Notes: a model not told the origin generated them from the letters alone. 14,483 nucleotides of DNA from an uncultured archaeon (GCA_964589775.1 CAZPUN010000015.1:1-14483); one strand, 5' to 3'; shown: positions 1-12,476, counted from the first letter of the stretch. Made by a program: numbers and translations.

Positions 1-1177
1 AAGAATTCCAGAGTGAATCGATTGGAAGTTCCAAAATGCTTCCAAGACTTGTAAAGTATCTCTGACATGGAATGACCTCGCCATTGGGTTCAACTGCAAG
101 TGCAGAAAACCCAGCGTGACAGATTCTTGGTTTTAATCCCCAGTCTACAAGATCAAAGATTTCGAATGGAATCGGAGTGTACCACTTCAGCTTGATTTTG
201 TTTCTTCTTACTTTAATAATGATATCAAGCATAATGTCGTCTATATCGGATTCCGGAATTGCATACTCGGGTGGATTCGGAAGGCTATCTTTATAGAATA
301 TTCCGTTTAGCATCATGTATTTTTGACCCAATTCTACGAGATAATCAATAGTTTCATTAATATCAGGCAGGTTAATCTTTGTTAGTGTTGTATTAGTAAT
401 TGTGTAAATATCCGTATCGATAAATTCTTTCAAGCCGCGAATAGTTTCCTTCCACGCTCCTGAAACGCCTGCCATTTTGTCATGGGTCTCTTCCTTATGA
501 GAATATAGTTCTACCTGAACATAATCAATACCTGCCTTTACTAACTCATCCACTTTATCTTTTGTAAGCAATCGAGCATTCGTAATTATTCCCGTAATTA
601 TGCCAAGATCCTCAGCATGACTGATGAGTTTAGGTAGGTCTTCGCGTAGTGTTGGTTCGCCGCCTGTAAATGTAATATTTGGAATTCCCGCAGAGGATAT
701 TTTGTCTATTATTTCTATCCATTGTTCAGTAGAGAGCTCAACATCCTTATTCCATTTTAATCGTGCATCATCAAGATGGGAAAAAATGGGCGAATTATTA
801 TTCCGATAAGTAATTGCAAGGTCCATTCGTAATGGAGCACTGGGTGGTGTTGAAAATGGTTCTGTGCTCTCTATTTCATGTGCTTCGATTGGATATACAT
901 CTGGTTCTTTGACAAATTTTTTGATTTTTTCAACTAATTCTGCATAATCCTTCTTAATTGTTTCCGTATCGATTTTATATAATTTAGAAATTTCTTCAAT
1001 TGCTTTGTCTTCTGAAGCTCCTGTTAGCATTAACTTGGTGTAATGATATGCAGTATCATTTAGATAGAGAATTCGCATTGAGTCTATGACTAGCATTCCG
1101 CCTGATTTTTCCTTACGTAGAATAAAGCGATGCCCTTCTAGTTCATCGGTTCCAATGGCTCGAAAAACTTCAGACAT
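1..1177 (-). CDS. Pseudo-radical SAM/SPASM protein with N-terminal RRE (PqqD-like) region; CxxxCxxC replaced by NxxxPxxS; 3' end runs off the window
   Basis: Hand translation from ATG 1175-1177 (overlaps upstream stop as TAATG) is open to the window edge: MSEVFRAIGTDELEGHRFILRKEKSGGMLVIDSMRILYLNDTAY...APLRMDLAITYRNNNSPIFSHLD...ELSTEQW...ITFTGGEPTLREDL...IITNARLLT...KWYTP...ICHAGFSALAVEPNGEVIPCQRYFTSLGSIL. Collinear with the 4786-6111 protein throughout. Absent from the ORF track because there is no stop in the window. Confidence 0.93.
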   Translation of the reverse strand, partial: MSEVFRAIGTDELEGHRFILRKEKSGGMLVIDSMRILYLNDTAYHYTKLMLTGASEDKAIEEISKLYKIDTETIKKDYAELVEKIKKFVKEPDVYPIEAHEIESTEPFSTPPSAPLRMDLAITYRNNNSPIFSHLDDARLKWNKDVELSTEQWIEIIDKISSAGIPNITFTGGEPTLREDLPKLISHAEDLGIITGIITNARLLTKDKVDELVKAGIDYVQVELYSHKEETHDKMAGVSGAWKETIRGLKEFIDTDIYTITNTTLTKINLPDINETIDYLVELGQKYMMLNGIFYKDSLPNPPEYAIPESDIDDIMLDIIIKVRRNKIKLKWYTPIPFEIFDLVDWGLKPRICHAGFSALAVEPNGEVIPCQRYFTSLGSILELPIDSLWNS

Positions 1178-2835
1178 TAACGACCACCTCCAGCACAGGC
1201 ACATGCACAACTTGCACAGGCACACGCGCATGAGCCGCCATGACCACCACTACTTGGCGCTGGATTGAATAGATTTACAATGGCATCGGCAATTCCTGCA
1301 AATCCTGCTACAGCTGTATTTGCAAACCCTTCAACCCCTGATACAAATGAGTCTGCAAAGTTTGATATGGATGGGATTTCTGTTTTTCCACTTGGAGAGG
1401 GTAATTGGGAAAAACTGCTTTTGCTCCTGTGAATACCCCTAGATCTATAACTTGTCCTATGGATAGACATATACCATGGAGGTACATAAACAACGTCCAA
1501 ACCGCTTGCATATTTCTTGGGCTTATCTGCAGCTAATAGCCATTCAGCATATTCATTGAATGCTTTCTGTTGGACTACCGGTTCCTCTGCAGATGCAATT
1601 TCTCTGAATGCGCGCTCAATTATTTTCTTATAATATTCCTTTGTCTTATCTCTGGAATAGCCTTCCATCTTCTCTGCAACTGTCTCAATTAGAAGAATAA
1701 GAGCATCTTCGACTCGCTTTTTATTAATGGTGCCGTTATCATTAATTGCCTTTAATAATGCACGTTCATAGTATCTTGCTCTTGCCTGCTTGAGATCTAC
1801 ATTTTTCTTAATAAACCTTGGTGGATCGCCGGGAACAACATCAATAATTCCTTTCTTAAGCATACCAAATATAATCATCGTGAAAACACGTTGTAATGGA
1901 ATTTCCATCAAAACTGCTGCCTCAACCGCTGTTAACCCTCTATGAATGCCAAGAGTTTCAGCTTTCACAGCTGGTGGCAAATATTTATTCCTACCCCTAT
2001 GATTACTAAGTGATGCCCCTAGGAGACAGAGGAAGAAAAATACCGGAAATATGAAAATCATTAAATCGTCAAAATCAATGTTTATCGGTGGGTTATATGC
2101 AGTATAATATGTAGAAACATATCTCTTAGGAAATGATATACCATAAGTAAACTGTTTGGGAGCTACATTTTCCTCACGATATATGAAAACTAACGATTGT
2201 GAATCATTCTTAATAATATCTGGAGCCTCACGATGGTAATATGATTCACTACGATTATAGAACCCTACTGGAAAATGTAAATAGGTATACATATAGTCTA
2301 CCATAAAACAAAATCCACCCGAGAACCATGTTGGTGAAAATTCATAGCCGACATAATCTTCCTTCTCGGTATCTTGGTATATCATATGCGGGTTATTACC
2401 CCAGATTACTAAGGTGCCCACTTCACCATCATGTATCTGAATACTTGCGGGAATGTGCACTTCGACCCCTATATCGATATACGTTGAAACACGAATATCT
2501 GTTAGCGTATACCAGGTTCCATCTTTGTACCATTTTGCATGAATAGAACTTAAATTGTAGTATTCATTCGGAAATCCAATGTCTATAACATCAATTGGGT
2601 CTCCATGATTCTCAAAAACAATCGTGTAATTAATATCAATAGACCCATCAGCTTTTGGATATACGTGTACTGACTCATTTCTAAGCTTGAAATAATAATC
2701 TTGTGCTAGTCTCATAGAAGTATCGGGTTTTATTATATTCTCATTATTTATTTCAGTCTGTGGCATCATTAGTATTGCCGCGGAACTTAGAAAAATGAGC
2801 GAGATTATAATAAATCCCATCCCCTTTCTTAACAT
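1177..2835 (-). CDS. Membrane protein, DUF2207/YciQ-like architecture, with C-terminal Cys-rich tail SCACACASCACACAGGGR
   Basis: N-terminal hydrophobic signal/anchor (FIIISLIFLSSAAILM), beta-rich ectodomain (VYPKADGSIDINYTIVF), TM helix (LMIFIFPVFFFLCLLGASL), cytoplasmic region (LTAVEAAVLM...MLKKGII), Ser/Gly linker and six-Cys tail. ATG at 2835 preferred over the track's GTG at 2844 because it lies 2 nt after the upstream stop. Family assignment is by resemblance only. Confidence 0.85.
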   Translation of the reverse strand: MLRKGMGFIIISLIFLSSAAILMMPQTEINNENIIKPDTSMRLAQDYYFKLRNESVHVYPKADGSIDINYTIVFENHGDPIDVIDIGFPNEYYNLSSIHAKWYKDGTWYTLTDIRVSTYIDIGVEVHIPASIQIHDGEVGTLVIWGNNPHMIYQDTEKEDYVGYEFSPTWFSGGFCFMVDYMYTYLHFPVGFYNRSESYYHREAPDIIKNDSQSLVFIYREENVAPKQFTYGISFPKRYVSTYYTAYNPPINIDFDDLMIFIFPVFFFLCLLGASLSNHRGRNKYLPPAVKAETLGIHRGLTAVEAAVLMEIPLQRVFTMIIFGMLKKGIIDVVPGDPPRFIKKNVDLKQARARYYERALLKAINDNGTINKKRVEDALILLIETVAEKMEGYSRDKTKEYYKKIIERAFREIASAEEPVVQQKAFNEYAEWLLAADKPKKYASGLDVVYVPPWYMSIHRTSYRSRGIHRSKSSFSQLPSPSGKTEIPSISNFADSFVSGVEGFANTAVAGFAGIADAIVNLFNPAPSSGGHGGSCACACASCACACAGGGR

Positions 2836-2837
2836 CT

Positions 2838-3200
2838 TTACCACTTCACATCTTCAACCATTTGATATACTGCGCCACAATATGGACATGTAACAGTAAT
2901 TGTACCCGTATTAGGATCAAAATGTAATGACTTCTTTGTTAGTTTCCCTCCACATTCCTTGCATTTTAGCTGTTCTAGGTCAATGCTCGGAGGTAACTCA
3001 ACTGTTGCCTTGACCTCATAGACAGCTTTCGTCTTCATGCGTGTTATGACAATCATCACTATAGATACAACTACTAGGATACTGCCTGTAATTAATCTTG
3101 GAACTGTATTCTGCACTGGAGCCGCCAGAAGGTACATTGCTCCAAAAAACATCAAGATTGATGCTATACAATAAAGCAAATAGCCTATCTTCTCGTTCAT
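2838..3200 (-). CDS. Small membrane protein with two TM helices and a C-terminal zinc ribbon
   Basis: Two hydrophobic helices then CKECGG...CPYCG. ATG at 3200 (MNEKIG) preferred over TTG at 3218. Stop abuts the start of the next gene, consistent with an operon. Confidence 0.85.
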   Translation of the reverse strand: MNEKIGYLLYCIASILMFFGAMYLLAAPVQNTVPRLITGSILVVVSIVMIVITRMKTKAVYEVKATVELPPSIDLEQLKCKECGGKLTKKSLHFDPNTGTITVTCPYCGAVYQMVEDVKW

Positions 3201-3534
3201 AGGATAACTATAGCACAAATAAGAATATGAATTTTTGCATCTTTTATTTGAGCATTTTTATATTATACACTAACAAAATAAGAAATCTATAGATATAAGT
3301 GTTTAAATTCAACATGAGAGAGTATCAACTTAACTTACATTCTTGCTCTGATAGTTTTTATGCAAAGCAAAATTCAATTAATTATCAAATATCTACTTTC
3401 ATTTTAAATTCATATCATATTTTTTTATTTGAAACATTCTTAATTATATTAATTAAATTGTTTTAAAACTCAAGAATCATATTATTTAAAAGAAAAAAAT
3501 CTAATATTCTATAATGTAAGTAGGAGGAGAATAT

Positions 3535-4770
3535 ATGGCTATTAATATGAAGAACACTAATGTTCGTGTAGCTTTAACACTTGTTTTTTTAATATCACTC
3601 TCTCAACTTTCGCTAATGGCGAATGCTAACATTTTTGGAATTCCAACAGATCTAGAAACCGCTCATGGAATTGTTTATTATAATGAGTATCCTTTCCAAT
3701 ATAGATGGGTAAATACACATAAGCTGAATTTATTAGGTCTAAATAATTATGCAATCGGTTGGGAATCAATTTACAATATGGTTCAACTCTTCGGTATTAA
3801 TTCGACGGATCAAATAGTTGTTGCAAACACATTAATTGGATTGGAAATATATAAAGACGCAAACAATAATAGTATTATTGATGCGGACTATGAAGACGCA
3901 AGTACTGAGTGTATGTATTTCTTAACTATAATTGATTATAGTGATTTTATAAATGAAGGCCCACATAAAGAGTCTAATAACGTTTATACATGGAAAACAA
4001 GAATTGTGAATCCAGAATTCATGGGAAATTACGACTATATATATGGGCCAACAAATCCTGGGAGTATTAATATCACATTTGATTATATAGAATTCAATTA
4101 TAGATACTTTGAAGTGACAACGGAATTACAGACATATCAAGTAGTAAGATTAAATATAAAAATTGGAGCGGTAAATCAATCAACTATTAAAACTTCAAGT
4201 GGTGTCTCCAATTTTGAGATTCCTGATTCTTGGAGTTTATCCTTGCTATATTCATTATCATTATCACTAGTACAATGCTCTAAAGTTTCCGAATCTGTGA
4301 AGTATCGACTACAATATGTCAAGTTCGGATATATCAACAATTACTTCTTTAAGATTGAATTTTCTAATAATTATACGTATATTGAAAATAAAACAGCAGT
4401 AAGTTACCCCACTCATTGTATATATACAAAACCAAATGCAATAAATGAAGATCTAAAACAGATGAGTTCATATTCTAATGCATTACAAGGATTAATCAAC
4501 GCATTTATGACTCAATTATATCACAAATCATTACAAGTAAATATAGACGCAGATTCTTCTACATATTGCTATAGGTCTGAATATCCAATTTGGAAAGCCT
4601 CGGAGATTAATCATAATATAACATTTGTAATCTTTGATATAAACTCTACTACAAGTATATATGCAAATGTATTTTACGAGCGCGCAATATTAATCACAAT
4701 CCCGTGTATTAGTATAAGCGTGGCAATAATAATTTATAGTATGAAGAAGAGGAAAATCAAAGCATCTTAA
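3535..4770 (+). CDS. Secreted, C-terminally anchored hypothetical surface protein
   Basis: RBS GGAGGAGA 4 nt before ATG; N-terminal signal peptide (VALTLVFLISLSQLSLMANA); several N-x-S/T sequons; C-terminal TM helix (AILITIPCISISVAIIIY) followed by basic tail KKRKIKAS. Confidence 0.85.
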   Translation: MAINMKNTNVRVALTLVFLISLSQLSLMANANIFGIPTDLETAHGIVYYNEYPFQYRWVNTHKLNLLGLNNYAIGWESIYNMVQLFGINSTDQIVVANTLIGLEIYKDANNNSIIDADYEDASTECMYFLTIIDYSDFINEGPHKESNNVYTWKTRIVNPEFMGNYDYIYGPTNPGSINITFDYIEFNYRYFEVTTELQTYQVVRLNIKIGAVNQSTIKTSSGVSNFEIPDSWSLSLLYSLSLSLVQCSKVSESVKYRLQYVKFGYINNYFFKIEFSNNYTYIENKTAVSYPTHCIYTKPNAINEDLKQMSSYSNALQGLINAFMTQLYHKSLQVNIDADSSTYCYRSEYPIWKASEINHNITFVIFDINSTTSIYANVFYERAILITIPCISISVAIIIYSMKKRKIKAS

Positions 4771-4785
4771 GTTGGCCCTCTTCTT

Positions 4786-6111
4786 TTATTTTGTTTTGTC
4801 AAGAACAATTTTAATTGGTTTTGGCTTTACTTGTGTGGAATATAATGGACAGCCAGCACCACAAAAGTTGAAAAGTTCACATTCTCTACATTCTTTTGGT
4901 GCCCATTCATGACCTCTGATACTTTTTGCCAGTGGATGATCCCATATTGAATCCCATGAGTCTTTGAGGATGTTTCCAAGTGGTGAAAAGTAGCTCTGGC
5001 AGGGTATAACGTCTCCATTCGGTTCAATTCCCATACTAGAATAGGCGGCACTGCATCGCTTAGTTCCAAGCCCATACTCAAGGGGATTAAAATGGCAATA
5101 CCAAGTCGGAGTATACCATATCATTTTCATTTTGAGAGGTCTAGAGGTCATTAGTATATCTAGTATAAGGTCGTCCAGTTCGTCTTCAGGAATTCCAATT
5201 TCATTCGCAACTGCTATGCCAGATCCAGAATAAATTAAGCCATTCATCGCAAAATCTTTTTGTCCTATAGAATGCAGGAATTTAACAAGATCTGTCGCAG
5301 TATGTTTATTTATTTGAGTTAGCGTCGTATTTGTAAGAATGTACATTCCTTTTCCTTGAGAATTCTTTATGCCATTAACTGTTTCTTGCCATGCCCCTTT
5401 TACACCAACCATACGGTCATGAATTTCAGGATCTGAGGACTCTAAAGTAATCTGTATATAGTCTAAACCTGCCTTAGACAGAGCATCAGCAAATTCCGAA
5501 GTTAGTAATCGGCCATTAGTAATGAGACCCGAATACATTCCAAGATCTTCGGCATATTTTATCAATTCAATAAGGTCCTTGCGGAGAGGGGCTTCACCGC
5601 CAGTAAATGTAACGTGTGGAACGCCAACTTCAATTAGTCTATCTAGAACCTTTTTCCACTGCTCAGTACTCAATTCCTTGGATTTAGGCCATGCTCTTCG
5701 TTCGGAATCTACATAACAATGTGAGCAAAAATTATTACATCGATAAGTTAATGCAAGATCAACTCTATAAGGTGCAGAAGGCTCATGAGTGAATGGAAGA
5801 ACTTCCTCAAAGCCAAGGTCTGTTGGATAGATCTCAGGATGCCGAATATAATCAAGAATCTTATTCTTAAAATCCGTAAAATCCTGCCGAATACGATTTT
5901 CGTCTTGTTTGAATCGCTTTGCAACACCTTCTATTATACGTTCGTCAGATTCGCCTTCTATAATTCCTTTGGCAAAATAATATGCGGAGTCGTTCAAAAA
6001 TAGCAAACGTATTGCATCAATTACCAGGACCCCACCATGTTTATCCCTGCGAAGAATAAAACGATGATTTTTCAAGTCATCTTTTCCAATTTTAAGCTCA
6101 ATTTTAGTCAA
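4786..6111 (-). CDS. Radical SAM/SPASM-domain maturase (PqqE/AlbA-like) with N-terminal RRE (PqqD-like) region
   Basis: CNNFCSHC (C125/C129/C132, nt 5716-5739), FTGGE, LITNG, SPASM cysteines CSAA...GDVIPC...CRECELFNFCGAGC; N-terminal beta-strands then LNDSA plus helices, as in RRE folds. TTG start preceded by GGAGGCGA. Confidence 0.95.
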   Translation of the reverse strand: MTKIELKIGKDDLKNHRFILRRDKHGGVLVIDAIRLLFLNDSAYYFAKGIIEGESDERIIEGVAKRFKQDENRIRQDFTDFKNKILDYIRHPEIYPTDLGFEEVLPFTHEPSAPYRVDLALTYRCNNFCSHCYVDSERRAWPKSKELSTEQWKKVLDRLIEVGVPHVTFTGGEAPLRKDLIELIKYAEDLGMYSGLITNGRLLTSEFADALSKAGLDYIQITLESSDPEIHDRMVGVKGAWQETVNGIKNSQGKGMYILTNTTLTQINKHTATDLVKFLHSIGQKDFAMNGLIYSGSGIAVANEIGIPEDELDDLILDILMTSRPLKMKMIWYTPTWYCHFNPLEYGLGTKRCSAAYSSMGIEPNGDVIPCQSYFSPLGNILKDSWDSIWDHPLAKSIRGHEWAPKECRECELFNFCGAGCPLYSTQVKPKPIKIVLDKTK

Positions 6112-6291
6112 AGTTTCGCCTCCACATGAACCATAATAATGTCTTAACGAATATAGAATTTTTGGAAAAAGCGATTATGGATTTCAGTAGAATCTGATTG
6201 AGACCTATCAAAATTGCTTTATAAACACTCTGAAAAAGCATCGCTTTTAAAAGCGTGATAAATCGCATAAAAGTTCATAACAGTGTTTGTA

Positions 6292-6485
6292 CATAATGGA
6301 ATTGAGCAATTTGAGAGCCTAGAATGGATTGCGACTTGAATGTACACGGCGCATCCAAAATCATCACCGGAAAAAATTGGGCAATAATAAGATCCTCGCC
6401 GAGCACCACGAGTATGTGCATAAAGGCTACCACAAGGTAGAGTTACGCAGAACCCACGCAATTCAATATAGGGCATATGTCAGAA
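6292..6485 (+). mobile_element. Decayed IS200/IS605-family (tnpB 3' end plus right end) remnant, copy A
   Basis: Frameshifted relic of the TnpB C-terminal motif (atg gat tgc gac ttg aat = MDCDLN, cf. MDRDLNAA); aligns with the reverse complement of 10708-10900; ends in gcagaacccacg...gggcatatgtcagaa. Confidence 0.65.
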
Positions 6486-6537
6486 AATTAAGAAATAATT
6501 TAAATATAATAATATAAAACAAAGAATGGTGATATTA

Positions 6538-7036: not shown

Positions 7037-8530
7037 TTACGCCAATATTTGTCTCAGGAATTCTGGACACTTTTCTACTTTACTTCCAAAAGAGTAGAAC
7101 AAATCATTTACAATTGGATTTTCCAAATTTAGCATATATGCAAAAAATCTTTGTTTGGTAAATACCCGTTGAAGGAATTTGTTTTTACAAAGAAAATCAA
7201 AGACATGCGAATTTCTAATTTCGTCTTTCTTATAGTATTTATTCAATATTTCATAGTTTTTAATAGAGTTACATTTTATCTTCGATTTTCGTATCGTATT
7301 GTATATCAACCACGCTTTACTCTTGGAAAGAGCACCAAATGTTCTAACTAATTTTTGATAATCATGAGCTTTTAATGCATGAAAATATATAATCAATAGT
7401 TGAATTATTGCAAAATGTATTGATTTCAAGTTAATGATCTCTTGTTGCGGTTCATCGATCATATTATTCATTATCTCACTTACTATTTCATCACGGGACT
7501 CAAAAATTAATGATTTCTCAAATGCATTTAATTGTGAGATGTATTTTGTGAATTTTTCAGTGAGTTGTACATATCGGGGTTTATATTTTAGATATTTTGT
7601 AATTTCTTCATAACAAATTGCGGTATCATGCGGGAGAATCCCACCAATCTCATAATAAAGTGGATTCAATGAACCATATATTAAGTAAATTATATTTCTT
7701 AAGAATTTAATTGATTTTTCTACGGATTGGTCTATATTTATACTAGAATCGTTGGACTTTTTTACGAAATGTTTTGTATTCCTACCTTTAATAAAATACG
7801 AATTTGCATGAGTCAATATATAATACATAATATAAAAGTGACTCACTGCAAGTTGTGCCCCAAAAACGATTTTATACTTATTTTGATAATGTTTGTTAGA
7901 TATATTTATTCTATAATATGATTGATTAATATAATTGATTTCAAAATTTTTGTCCATATTAACTTTGTTTATCTCAAAAGTATATGGGTCACTTTTTACA
8001 AATTTTATCGATTTGTCTATTCCATTCAATCCTACGTAAATATTTTGAAATTTCGCAAATTTACGATTAACAAAATCATGAATATGCAATATTTTTTTGT
8101 ATATTGGATCTTCTTCAAGATAATGAATATTAATATCGACCGGGTCTTCGAAATTTATAGAAGATGTTATTAATGCGAAACCTTGAAGGAAAACCTCAAC
8201 AGTTCCACCGATACTTCTTATGTTCTTATCGAACCACAAATTCGGATACTTGGCTTTTTTCAAATCGATATATCCTACAAATGAATATGGTGGAAAGAAC
8301 TTTGCATATATATACTGATTGAACTTGTGAACCATCTCTTTTGTCAAATATCTCTTGCGCCATTTGAACTGTGAAACATTGTTTATATAAAAGTCCTTAA
8401 TCGTATGCGTGAGTGGATCAATCTTATTATAAGTATCAATATTGCATATATATGAAATTGTTTCCTTTAGTTTTCGCCTATCGAGGATATGATCTATCAG
8501 ATTATATATTGTAATTGTCTTAAATAACAT
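7037..8530 (-). CDS. Hypothetical protein, very AT-rich, possible C-terminal winged-helix region
   Basis: 497-codon ORF, too long to be chance in AT-rich DNA; rich in I/K/N/Y/F; no catalytic motif recognised. The C-terminal helix-helix-strand-turn-strand pattern (VFDFLCKNKFLQRVFTKQRFFAYMLN) is only suggestive. Confidence 0.7.
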   Translation of the reverse strand: MLFKTITIYNLIDHILDRRKLKETISYICNIDTYNKIDPLTHTIKDFYINNVSQFKWRKRYLTKEMVHKFNQYIYAKFFPPYSFVGYIDLKKAKYPNLWFDKNIRSIGGTVEVFLQGFALITSSINFEDPVDINIHYLEEDPIYKKILHIHDFVNRKFAKFQNIYVGLNGIDKSIKFVKSDPYTFEINKVNMDKNFEINYINQSYYRINISNKHYQNKYKIVFGAQLAVSHFYIMYYILTHANSYFIKGRNTKHFVKKSNDSSINIDQSVEKSIKFLRNIIYLIYGSLNPLYYEIGGILPHDTAICYEEITKYLKYKPRYVQLTEKFTKYISQLNAFEKSLIFESRDEIVSEIMNNMIDEPQQEIINLKSIHFAIIQLLIIYFHALKAHDYQKLVRTFGALSKSKAWLIYNTIRKSKIKCNSIKNYEILNKYYKKDEIRNSHVFDFLCKNKFLQRVFTKQRFFAYMLNLENPIVNDLFYSFGSKVEKCPEFLRQILA

Positions 8531-8880: not shown

Positions 8881-9030
8881 TATATTGATAAATCTATAAA
8901 ATTGTAATTTCAAATTATAATAAAAGTCGGTTTTAGCATCTACAAAATAGATTTGACAACAATTTTTTTAGATATTTTAGAAAAATCAAAAACATAACCA
9001 TAAAATTTTATTGAATAACAACGACGTCAC

Positions 9031-9043
9031 ACAAAGTTTATAT
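9031..9043 (+). promoter_or_regulatory. Putative BRE-TATA (acaaagTTTATAT)
   Basis: Purine-rich run followed by TTTATAT at 9037-9043; would start a transcript near 9066 covering the 9082-9161 hairpins and ending at the T-tract near 9164-9169. Confidence 0.4.
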
Positions 9044-9081
9044 TTGGGTTTCACGCAAAAAAATAGTGAAAAAAATAAAAA

Positions 9082-9161
9082 ATGGGTGTTGGTAGTAGGT
9101 ATTACCAGCCACCATCGCCAGCGGGTGGAAAGATAGGATCCATCCTTCAATTTCACCTCCG
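9082..9161 (+). ncRNA. Two-hairpin GC-rich element, candidate small/antisense RNA
   Basis: gttggtagt (9088-9096) pairs with attaccagc (9101-9109) using two G-U pairs, extended by atgg/ccat; ggtggaa (9124-9130) pairs with tttcacc (9151-9157) using one G-U. The wobbles work only on the plus strand. Confidence 0.4.
9102..9143 (-). CDS. Candidate 13-aa peptide MDPIFPPAGDGGW
   Basis: Perfect GGAGGTGA (plus-strand tcacctcc, 9153-9160) 9 nt before ATG; TAA at 9102-9104; followed by three T6-T7 tracts on the minus strand. Confidence 0.35.
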   Translation of the reverse strand: MDPIFPPAGDGGW

Positions 9162-9433
9162 TATTTTTTATTCATGTAAATATATGCAGGGCATGAGAAA
9201 TTTGTTTAACGTAATTTTTGATTTTTTGAATGTTTTTTCAATCTCAAAGATGAAAATAAAGAAAAATATAGTACTTTCAAAATAAATGATAAAAATTATA
9301 GAAATCATGAATTATCGATACAAAAAATTTCGGGCAACAGGTATGGAAAAAAATTTAATTCTTGATGAAGAAAATTAATTTTATTAAATCATAAGGAAAT
9401 AAAACAATAATGTGCGATATGTAGGAGAATTCT

Positions 9434-10519
9434 ATGATCGGGTGTTTGGAAATCCTCGTGATGATTATTGGGTTAAGGTTCAGAGAATGGATAATTGAGA
9501 ATAGTAATGGAGTTCCACGAACTATGGTGCTAATGGCACACAAACTTGCTAATATGGGTTTCGACTATGTAAGGCAAGTGGGTCTTCATGCTGCGATTCG
9601 TGAGTTAGATGCTCAAATGGTACAAAGTATCGATATATCTATTATTAATGACTTGCTTAGTTTGAAGAATGGCAGGGAGATGCTCGAATGGATAGTATGG
9701 CGTTCATTAATTGAGAAGGAAATCCCGATTCTAGGCATACGTAGGATACAATTAGATGAAGCGGAACGGGAAAATATTTGCACGATTGATGATCTAATAG
9801 ATAAGGGTGTAGTACATCTATTGAATGGAAGCGTTGAAATTCGGACTAATTATTACTTGTTATCTTTAAAGAATGCATTAGGTTTAGACCATATTATGCT
9901 GAAAGACTTGCTGGATATATCCGGTCTAACACGAGATGAGGCATTAGCCTTGAGTAGTTGGCAGGTGAATGTGATCGGTGCTTACTTTGAGATGGCGGTT
10001 GCTCTCGCACTATTTCGCTTATCTCAACAAGGTATCTTTAACCTTGATAGACTGTTTAGCAATTCAAATGAGACAAAAGTAGTTGTTCCGAAATTCGAAA
10101 GGATTGAGAAACTGCCCTTTTATAGTAGTGAGTTAATCAAACCTAATGTGATATATGCAATGCCGAGAGTTAAAGGCGTGGATATCACGTTTAAGGATGT
10201 AGAAGGAAACATGGTTCTCATAGAATGCAAGAACTGGGAGCGAGCCATCTCAAGTCTAGAACTTTCAATAATCCACAGGAATATATTGCAATTCGAGAAA
10301 GAAATTGGCAGATCCGGAATTCACATTCTGGTGACTACATCGCAATTATCCGAAGAGTTGCTAAATCAGGCAAATGAACAAAAGCTATTTGTAATAAACG
10401 AAATGGACCGATTAGTCGGACGAGATATCATGGACTTCTTCGAGCAAGCTCTCCAACGTGCACGAAAAGTTGAACCCCTTATGGTCCGCACTGCCGTGGG
10501 TGGATTCCAAAGTATATAG
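9434..10519 (+). CDS. Protein with C-terminal PD-(D/E)XK (restriction endonuclease/Mrr-like) domain; N-terminus resembles the post-P-loop part of a STAND/AAA+ ATPase
   Basis: GAYFEMAV...GVDITFKD...VLIECKNW gives the E...D...ExK pattern; SNGVPR resembles the GxP(R) motif; AGGAG 7 nt before ATG; no Walker A in the ORF. Confidence 0.75.
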   Translation: MIGCLEILVMIIGLRFREWIIENSNGVPRTMVLMAHKLANMGFDYVRQVGLHAAIRELDAQMVQSIDISIINDLLSLKNGREMLEWIVWRSLIEKEIPILGIRRIQLDEAERENICTIDDLIDKGVVHLLNGSVEIRTNYYLLSLKNALGLDHIMLKDLLDISGLTRDEALALSSWQVNVIGAYFEMAVALALFRLSQQGIFNLDRLFSNSNETKVVVPKFERIEKLPFYSSELIKPNVIYAMPRVKGVDITFKDVEGNMVLIECKNWERAISSLELSIIHRNILQFEKEIGRSGIHILVTTSQLSEELLNQANEQKLFVINEMDRLVGRDIMDFFEQALQRARKVEPLMVRTAVGGFQSI

Positions 10520-10611
10520 ACCTACATGAGTTATTCAATGTGTTTGTTATCGGATTAACATAATCAAGCTCGGCAAATTCCAAAGTATATCAACCAATAT
10601 GAGTTATTCAA
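10504..10611. repeat. Two 35-bp direct repeats separated by 38 bp
   Basis: attccaaagtatatagacctacatgagttattcaa (10504-10538) and attccaaagtatatcaaccaatatgagttattcaa (10577-10611), 31/35 identical; the first copy overlaps the stop codon of the nuclease gene. Confidence 0.85.
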
Positions 10612-10707
10612 CATAATTCCGAAATTAAAATACGAGGTTTTTGCAAATTTGCTGTTTAAAACAATTCTTTGTATATAATATTGATTATATCATACACAGT
10701 GATCTTT

Positions 10708-11267: not shown

Positions 11268-12476
11268 ATGTTATATGCAGTTTGGGTAATAGACAAAGGC
11301 GGACTGCCAATTATTTCGCGTGAATATGCTAATTTTGGAATAGACTCAAGCTTGGTTTCAGGTTTTGTTGAAGCCCTCTATACGTTTGCCCTCGAACTTG
11401 GTGCAAAAGGGGTACGCGAGATAGATGCGTTATCTTTTAAATTGATTATTGAACGAAATATTGATGGTTCTTTGATCGTAATTGCTGCTGATAAGGATGA
11501 CAAAGCATCATATTATGAGGATTTTATGACAGCCATTCGAAATGAAATTCTAGATGTTTATGAAGATCTCGGAGAGAATCCTGCAGCTAAAAAGATAGTT
11601 GATTCTGTTTTTGATAGATTAATTCAGCGATATATTGTTAAGAAAAGTCCGTGGCAAGCGAAACAAGCTAAAATTATATCGAATCCGAATGTTGTTAAGC
11701 TAATCAAAATGATGATAAATGGTGAAATAAAAAAAATTACGCCTACAACATCGAAAAACACTCCCGGGTTCAATTATTCAGTTGCAGAACTCGTACTTCA
11801 TCAAGATGTGGAAGAAACTGTAAAGACCTTGGAAAAATTAGTAGATTATAGCATTTTACGAAAGAAACCCGTCATGAGCATTTTAACATGCCAGAATCGT
11901 AATGAGCCGGTCATCGTTAAACTTGTATGTCCAAAGTGCAATAAGAGTTCGCTTAGGCAAATTACAATCCTTGAACATTTTGATTGTGGTTTCATAGGAG
12001 AACTTCTGGATCCGCCTTTTGCCCGTGTAAAGCATTGCCCTAATTGTGGAGTGATTTTAAATAGAGAAGGCATAGATTATATACAACGTCGTGGATATAT
12101 TTGCGAAAATTGCGGAAGCACAATTGAAACACCAATCATAAGCTATTACTGTAGGAATCGGAATAAAACAATTAAGCCTGATGAGGCAACTGTCACTCAG
12201 ATATACGAGTATGAATTGAATGAACAATCTGTAAAAGAAACTAAATCGCTTCTGGCTTCAATTGAACTTGAAGAAGAAATTGCAAAGGCGAAGAAATATA
12301 AGAAAAAGACAAGCAAGAAATCTAGCATCCAAAAGGAAATCTTGGATCTTGAAAATCAAATTAAAATGATTGATGAGGATTTCAGGCTTGGTAAGATTTC
12401 CGCATCAGAAAGAGATAGACGATATATTGCAATTAGACGAAAAATTCGTATGCTTAGAAATGTATCTTCTGAATAA
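11268..12476 (+). CDS. Longin/roadblock-like N-terminal domain fused to a Cys-rich TackOD1-like domain and a C-terminal charged helical tail
   Basis: N-terminus MLYAVWVIDKGGLPIISREY...DSSLVSGFVEALYTFALE...VREID resembles Asgard longin-like domains; then a wHTH-like segment (LEKLVDYSILRKK) and CPKC, EHFDCG, CPNC, CENC motifs as in Thaumarchaeal output domain 1. GGTG RBS upstream, T-rich tract downstream. Confidence 0.75.
   Translation: MLYAVWVIDKGGLPIISREYANFGIDSSLVSGFVEALYTFALELGAKGVREIDALSFKLIIERNIDGSLIVIAADKDDKASYYEDFMTAIRNEILDVYEDLGENPAAKKIVDSVFDRLIQRYIVKKSPWQAKQAKIISNPNVVKLIKMMINGEIKKITPTTSKNTPGFNYSVAELVLHQDVEETVKTLEKLVDYSILRKKPVMSILTCQNRNEPVIVKLVCPKCNKSSLRQITILEHFDCGFIGELLDPPFARVKHCPNCGVILNREGIDYIQRRGYICENCGSTIETPIISYYCRNRNKTIKPDEATVTQIYEYELNEQSVKETKSLLASIELEEEIAKAKKYKKKTSKKSSIQKEILDLENQIKMIDEDFRLGKISASERDRRYIAIRRKIRMLRNVSSE

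Follow-up and report, generated by a model that had tools for sequence, protein, structure and literature searches.

A Cys-Ala-tailed membrane protein as putative substrate of a radical SAM/SPASM enzyme accompanied by a dead paralog in an Asgard archaeon

Background

What does a radical S-adenosylmethionine (SAM) enzyme of the peptide-modifying kind act upon when no precursor peptide is encoded beside it? The question is raised by a locus of an uncultured archaeon (GCA_964589775.1, CAZPUN010000015.1:1-14483). The window, by which we mean the whole stretch of 14,483 nucleotides (nt) that was analyzed, makes up the first 14.5 kb of contig C15; the genome to which it belongs measures 2.16 Mb and is 97% complete. 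Close homologues, found by database search, carry the label Candidatus Ranarchaeia, which is a class in the Asgard kingdom Promethearchaeati. An earlier note, made from the DNA sequence alone, had described four minus-strand genes here, and all four open reading frames (ORFs) were confirmed: A, an active radical SAM/SPASM enzyme; D, its catalytically dead paralog; T, a membrane protein with a Cys-Ala repeat tail; and Z, a Zn-ribbon membrane protein.

The radical SAM chemistry associated with peptides that are made by the ribosome and modified after translation (RiPPs) has mostly been studied on short exported peptides, and clear cases in which a whole protein is modified (QhpC, CrpA) are recent. 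We consider it fairly probable that A modifies the cytoplasmic tail of T, most likely by introducing thioether crosslinks, with D acting as a non-catalytic partner. More tentatively, we suggest that the Cys-Ala tail of this widely distributed membrane protein could become a thioether ladder or a protein-derived cofactor, and that dead paralogs might have become obligate partners of the active enzyme on several independent occasions.

Results

The tail of T is its best-conserved segment

The last 18 residues of T before the stop codon, SCACACASCACACAGGGR, consist of two Ser-(Cys-Ala)3 units followed by GGGR. The Cys and Ala codons are mixed, so the tail is not a plain DNA repeat. In a database search, T had 85 homologues, archaeal and bacterial, the most distant of them 26% identical. 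A Cys-Ala repeat tail closes about 80 of these proteins, in most cases as ...CACACAGGGR, and the commonest form of the tail is CACACACAGCACACAGGGR. When 38 T sequences were aligned, the columns averaged 26% identity, and the glycines and the final Cys-Ala unit showed no variation. Conservation of the tail block is 0.85-0.97, the nearest competitor being the juxtamembrane cytoplasmic helix at 0.88. The tail is thus the best-conserved segment of the T family, far beyond chance. When one genome per GTDB species was scanned with the tail pattern, 600 matches were listed, and among these at least 317 species-level genomes encode a T relative.

An AlphaFold2 (AF2) model of T (predicted local distance difference test score, pLDDT, of 79) comprises an N-terminal helix (signal anchor), a confident beta-sandwich at residues 50-250 (about nt 2095-2697), a transmembrane (TM) helix at residues 258-285 (about nt 1990-2073) and a helical cytoplasmic domain at residues 300-445 (about nt 1510-1947). 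The linker and the tail are modelled with low confidence, the tail as disordered. Because basic residues follow the second TM helix (positive-inside rule), we infer that the tail is cytoplasmic, where an oxygen-sensitive enzyme could reach it.

The modelled ectodomain is closest to Ost1 (6c26_1; Z-score of 15.0, root-mean-square deviation of 2.8, 173 residues aligned) and ribophorin I (6s7o_E; Z-score of 14.4), with M1-aminopeptidase N-domains behind them (Z-score of ~12). We read this as a resemblance of fold between predicted and solved structures, implying neither membership nor function. The cytoplasmic domain resembles DUF2207_C clusters (template modeling score of 0.62-0.65) and, weakly, GOLPH3/Vps74. 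Against Pfam, T gave no match to DUF2207 or DUF2207_C (PF09972 and PF20990) at E <= 0.01 and stayed below the gathering score. The earlier note had called T a receptor-like scaffold with an ectodomain; the ectodomain stands, as an Ost1/ribophorin-I/DUF2207-like beta-sandwich, and "receptor-like" is a supposition.

The loci of the closest relatives, L103 and L104, carry two T paralogs, one on either side of Z (L104:6789-8498 and 8926-10647; L103:2033-3766 and 4239-5912). In the extra copy the tail is shorter and contains five cysteines; the window holds the second copy only.

A is an intact radical SAM/SPASM enzyme

In A, the radical SAM motif CxxxCxxC reads CNNFCSHC and occupies residues 125-132 (nt 5716-5739); the stretch that encodes the seven SPASM cysteines is nt 4849-5097. 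All ten of these cysteines (three radical SAM and seven SPASM) are invariant or nearly so across 40 orthologues, the CxxxCxxC motif itself being invariant. Pfam matches were found to Radical_SAM (1.5e-29) and SPASM (6e-11), and, weakly, at the N-terminus to PqqD, with E = 0.0086 for A and E = 9.6e-5 for D (23.1 bits against a cut-off of 23.4 bits). The nearest relatives of solved structure in a profile search are SkfB (7.6e-35), followed by PqqE, SuiB and CteB. The alignment with SkfB begins at residue 20 of that protein, within its N-terminal domain, and spans the recognition domain, the radical SAM barrel and the auxiliary-cluster domain. The fourth protein, Z, is small and has two TM helices; its zinc ribbon, predicted to be cytoplasmic, is of the form CxxC...CxxC (nt 2952-2963 and 2877-2888).

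Tail, enzyme and Zn-ribbon protein are linked across genomes

Linkage was assessed in the 80 best GTDB loci, with radical SAM homologues classed as active or dead by their aligned motif positions. Forty-five species-level loci with at least 1 kb of upstream and at least 6 kb of downstream flank were judgeable. Z lies directly upstream of T in 44 of these 45, an active A is present in 41, a class-I methyltransferase (M) in 36 and a dead D in 27. The commonest layout of the cassette is Z-T-A-D-M. The gene immediately after T is A in 59 of the 80 loci and D in five, so the T-D order of the window is the rarer one. Three distant members each have a small Zn-ribbon gene, T and a radical SAM gene in consecutive order. 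Besides Anaerolineae, among them the cultured Bellilinea caldifistulae GOMI-1 (locus L044) and Leptolinea sp. HRD-7 (locus L035), carriers of the cassette include Acidobacteriota, Zixibacteria, Cloacimonadota, Methanomassiliicoccales and Promethearchaeota. The co-occurrence of tail, radical SAM enzyme and Zn-ribbon gene, which the earlier note had proposed as a check on its reading, is therefore a tight linkage in both bacteria and archaea.

When the neighbouring genes were clustered, every further family was confined to 17 of 84 loci at most, and no protease or exporter recurred. A scan for small Cys-rich ORFs returned scattered matches in the 80 related loci, none of them recurrent, and none in the spacers of the window cassette. 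The impression that there is no free-standing precursor peptide was therefore correct for the cassette spacers and, as regards recurrent candidates, for the 80 loci.

Two outlying loci were noted. In L123 (1672-4754), a 572-amino acid (aa) protein in the position of T, which has no Cys-Ala tail and ends in GGGV, is encoded directly upstream of P0177, a radical SAM homologue that has lost two of its three radical SAM cysteines and kept all SPASM cysteines; this pair may represent the system in a degenerate or diverged form. In L121 (7001-8302), P0198, with a dead radical SAM motif and an intact SPASM domain, stands alone on its contig, which is archaeal and has neither T nor Z in the vicinity.

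A sister system has a different tail and a different enzyme clade

A true T orthologue was found in none of 40 genomes of the same order. In 29 of the 40 there is a protein of 710-760 aa that matches only the cytoplasmic domain of T. These sister proteins (loci L092-L102 and L111-L114) have the same build as T and end in a long Cys-His-Ser-Ala repeat tail followed by GG-x-R. An intact A-like enzyme adjoins them divergently in all four loci that were fetched. The enzymes of the sister clade match the window A at E ~1e-80, are 33-34% identical to the A of L104, and form a clade of their own. The genome of the window encodes the Cys-Ala type only, which there replaces the Cys-His-tail system usual in the order. 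Tail type and enzyme clade appear from these comparisons to change together, as an enzyme-substrate pair predicts, and co-inheritance alone could suffice to produce the pattern.

D is a complete gene without the radical SAM cysteines

D is ~44-45% identical to A. At its motif site, RNNNSPIFSH replaces CxxxCxxC (nt 776-805), leaving no cysteine. The GGE SAM-binding motif (nt 656-664), the PqqD-like N-terminus and about five of the seven SPASM cysteines are retained, and GGE is invariant in 36 dead paralogs. The window encodes 392 aa of D. A search with the C-terminus of the L104 D found the last 53 residues at the start of contig C10 of the same genome, in a piece that overlaps the last five D residues of the window and brings the full protein to ~440 aa. 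D is thus a complete gene that was cut by the assembly only. The start of C15, on the reverse strand, and the start of C10 overlap by ~15 nt inside D and can be joined; the break falls in the SPASM region. That D might be a decaying pseudogene is ruled out by the intact ORF of ~440 aa, by orthologues of 74% identity in two other genomes and by the invariant motifs.

The gene order downstream of D on C10 is the same as in L103 and L104: an 81-aa ORF and a 112-aa membrane ORF, neither of them Cys-enriched (both are Cys-free), and a V4R-domain protein. A precursor peptide just outside the window would have spoken against T as the substrate, and none is present on C10. Neither the window nor C10 holds a methyltransferase beside the cassette. 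An unlinked class-I methyltransferase (G000:C56:12216-12737; L110:8166-8864), G000 being the window's genome, is 35% identical to the methyltransferase of a Promethearchaeota cassette; it is no more than a possible orthologue of the cassette gene. Complex prediction for the natural A and D of L104 (alignments A2 and A3) scored 0.04 against a mark of 0.32, which weighs neither for nor against a complex.

Dead paralogs arose more than once

A tree of 60 active and dead proteins was built by quick search from sequences of skewed composition. The D proteins of Chloroflexota, ~385 aa long and with none of the ten cysteines, form one clade in it. The D proteins of the window, L103 and L104 are instead sister to the A of their own lineage, with a support of 94 in the Shimodaira-Hasegawa-like approximate likelihood ratio test (SH-aLRT), and this Asgard A-D pair is nested in a starred clade with a Promethearchaeota A. 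Forcing all D proteins into one group made the tree 47.5 log-likelihood units worse (approximately unbiased, AU, test, p = 0.018), a comparison whose grouping was chosen once the tree had been inspected and in which AT-rich composition could draw the Asgard A and D together. By pairwise identity, the window D is closest to its own A (44%), followed by other A proteins (median 37%) and Chloroflexota D proteins (median 30%).

For a wider set, 1.8 billion representatives were searched with the Asgard D, and a second quick-search tree was made of the 87 full-length matches. The Asgard D again stands beside its own A (SH-aLRT 98), and the tree requires at least six changes of motif state, of which some single-residue cases may be errors. 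In loci with a Cys-Ala tail, dead paralogs have at least three origins. P0098, encoded directly after a Cys-Ala-tailed T, is a further independent dead lineage.

From these trees, D appears to be a duplicate that this Asgard lineage made of its own A, with an origin separate from that of the Chloroflexota dead paralogs. A single origin of all dead paralogs was rejected by the AU test and by pairwise similarity. The pair of an active and an inactive enzyme that the earlier note had recognized in one genome is accordingly a recurrent arrangement that evolved more than once. That a cluster-less copy was invented and kept more than once speaks for a selected, non-catalytic role.

Layout of the window

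The tight coupling of the Z, T and D genes that had been reported is real (Table 1). The stop codon of Z (TAA) is followed by 2 nt and then by the ATG of T, and the stop of T and the start of D share one base in TAATG. The intact paralog was likewise placed correctly at about 1.6 kb upstream, with 1,567 nt between the end of A and the start of Z.

Table 1. Positions of the cassette genes and of the gene lying between A and Z, counted from the first nucleotide of the window
Feature	Position (nt)	Strand	Basis
A, active radical SAM-SPASM enzyme with putative RiPP recognition element (RRE), 441 aa	4786-6111	-	Pfam Radical_SAM and SPASM
Z, Zn-ribbon membrane protein; likely ATG start at 3200	2838-3218	-	Weak Zn-ribbon matches
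T, 552-aa membrane protein with Cys-Ala tail	1177-2835	-	AF2 model, 85 homologues
Tail of T, last 18 residues, putative modification site	1180-1233	-	Conservation
D, catalytically dead paralog of A	2-1177, continues at G000:C10:1-162	-	Homology, motif status
Intervening gene, 411 aa, secreted, C-terminally anchored, no known family	3535-4770	+	No Pfam or NCBIfam match

A is separated from Z by the intervening gene. This gene holds the same position, between A and T, in the relative L104, is missing from bacterial cassettes, and is probably not a core member of the cassette. Its product is beta-rich, and its look-alikes in the Atlas are unnamed archaeal clusters only.

Upstream of A, the spacer to a divergent cyclophilin (PPIase) gene (6112-6525) is unusually long, at 414 nt as against ~115 nt in L104. 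It contains an 85-aa ORF with six cysteines (6219-6476, minus strand), which is probably spurious. Folding of the spacer gave z = -1.6, which is not significant, and scans of the window for tRNAs and Rfam families gave no match. Farther along, ORFs of 497 aa (7037-8530, minus strand, in a stretch of only ~27% G+C) and 361 aa (9434-10519, plus strand) have no family match. In a 402-aa protein (11268-12476, plus strand), Pfam recognizes a TackOD1 output domain (5.5e-23), and CxxC pairs resembling a zinc ribbon are present as well. In a search of sequencing runs, one holder of this DNA was listed, a hydrothermal vent metagenome from which the window may itself derive, and no RNA holder was listed.

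Discussion

How A might modify T

If the tail of T is the substrate of A, the course of events may be pictured as follows. Z and T would be translated from coupled cistrons and come together in the membrane, with the ectodomain of T outside and its helical domain, linker and Cys-Ala tail in the cytoplasm. A would dock on the C-terminal region of T through its N-terminal PqqD-like recognition domain and cleave SAM at the CxxxCxxC cluster, and the 5'-deoxyadenosyl radical would remove a hydrogen from an Ala or Gly nearby. The first SPASM cluster would hold a cysteine of the tail at its open site, and this cysteine would be joined to the Ala or Gly carbon; over repeated turnovers, the tail would change from a flexible chain into a compact, thioether-crosslinked ladder. 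With Ala and Gly as the only acceptors on offer, the more plausible chemistry would be a link from S to the alpha-carbon (sactionine type). D, unable to start radical chemistry, might hold or present the substrate, or regulate A.

Several observations weigh against modification of the tail by A. In the window, a gene on the opposite strand divides A from Z-T-D. The loci of the linkage set are mostly from Anaerolineae and hence not independent. In three or four of the 45 judgeable loci (L011, L027 and L046, with a fragmented gene in L013), Z and T occur without a radical SAM gene within 8 kb, so the tail may exist without a linked enzyme. A also scores below every curated NCBIfam cut-off, and the type of reaction is therefore not readable from family membership. 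Two features of the tails themselves belong with these points: cysteines at alternating positions would all point to the same side of an extended strand, an arrangement known from metallothionein-like CxC motifs, and the sister tail mixes Cys with His, both of them metal ligands.

These last two features suggest the main rival explanation, which is that the Cys-Ala tail is a metal or Fe-S site, for example that of a sensor or carrier on the cytoplasmic side of the membrane, and that the radical SAM enzymes are linked to it without modifying it covalently, or act after metal loading. The loci with Z and T alone would fit such a role, as would the connection of the CrpA locus with growth on pyrite (PMC13692751). 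However, in ~90% of judgeable loci the tail has beside it an enzyme with an intact SPASM domain and a putative peptide-recognition domain, no other peptide substrate being apparent, and a metal site would allow more drift than the near-invariance that is seen, the Ala and Gly positions included. We regard a metal-binding tail as unlikely, although it is the alternative to be taken most seriously.

Z is a second candidate for the substrate. As the most constant neighbour of T, it has a conserved C-terminus ending in KW (EEPKW), with its last residues, including the final Lys-Trp, more than 90% conserved, and SuiB is among the solved relatives of A. A, or A with D, could in principle form a SuiB-like Lys-Trp crosslink there, instead of or besides acting on T. 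Yet the residues before KW vary in the Asgard member L039 and others, the tail of T is more strongly conserved than the end of Z, and SPASM thioether synthases bind substrate cysteines, of which T supplies 6-10. This explanation seems to us quite improbable. Least probable is that T is a giant precursor from which the tail, once modified, is cleaved to be set free or exported as a RiPP natural product of small size: a C-terminal core with a conserved segment just upstream does mimic the leader-core logic of RiPPs, but no protease or exporter recurs in the cassette, the 530 upstream residues are conserved as a folded two-domain membrane protein, and the tail is predicted to be cytoplasmic.

What the locus adds

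If A does crosslink the tail of T, RiPP-type radical SAM chemistry would extend to the tail of a conserved membrane protein, as a new kind of post-translational modification there. The system is attractive for experiments on account of its near-invariant 19-residue motif, its Cys-His-tailed sister family and its repeatedly invented dead paralogs, which offer a natural system for asking why radical SAM maturases need non-catalytic partners. The window itself adds a completed D, the apparently independent Asgard origin of D with partial retention of the SPASM cysteines, the absence of a linked methyltransferase, and a Cys-Ala type in place of the Cys-His system of the order.

Comparison with known systems

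The earlier note knew of no experimental characterization of such a system. This holds for the T family, which is uncharacterized in the sources searched, and literature searches found no paper on it or its cassette; for the kind of system, the statement was too broad, as CrpC/CrpA and QhpD/QhpC are precedents, and the nearest ones to the cassette. CrpC of Methanococcus voltae, an RRE-radical SAM-SPASM enzyme described in 2026, contains three [4Fe-4S] clusters and forms thioethers in the C-terminal Cys-rich repeats of CrpA, a large protein encoded next to it, at motifs that include ACAGM and CAVD (PMC13692751). Like A and T, this is an archaeal radical SAM-SPASM enzyme with an adjoining gene for a large protein that has Cys-Ala-containing motifs. 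T is a membrane protein with a short, near-invariant tail; CrpA is soluble, is built of repeats and has an N-terminus that resembles a leader. The CrpC/CrpA pair has neither a Zn-ribbon partner nor a dead paralog, and CrpC belongs to TIGR04463, a family that was not among the 25 best NCBIfam matches of A or D.

QhpD makes several thioether crosslinks within QhpC, to Asp and Glu (PMC7876137). Here, as proposed for A and T, the substrate of a radical SAM/SPASM enzyme is a whole protein subunit and not a natural-product peptide. QhpC differs from T in being a small soluble subunit of a quinone cofactor enzyme, with no membrane anchor, repeat tail or dead paralog. A third group is formed by SkfB, AlbA and StsB. 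SkfB is the best match of A among solved structures, and StsB introduces three Cys-to-Gly sactionines on the CxCxC core of StsA (PMC10288494), so that both the CxCxC donors and the Gly acceptors recall the tail of T. The substrates of these enzymes are short free exported peptides, whereas T joins its putative core to a membrane scaffold of 530 residues, and A lies far below the curated cut-offs of all three families.

The remaining parallels concern D and T individually. Pseudo-SAM/SPASM proteins of Halobacteria (TIGR04347) have, like D, lost the radical SAM cysteines, and both A and D match the model. Their scores, 136.8 bits for A and 102.6 bits for D, are far below its cut-off of 525 bits, and D is closest to its own A, which points to a separate and younger loss. 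T shares with DUF2207 proteins the succession of signal anchor, beta-sandwich ectodomain, TM helix and helical cytoplasmic domain, whereas the Cys-Ala tail and the linkage to radical SAM enzymes are specific to the T family.

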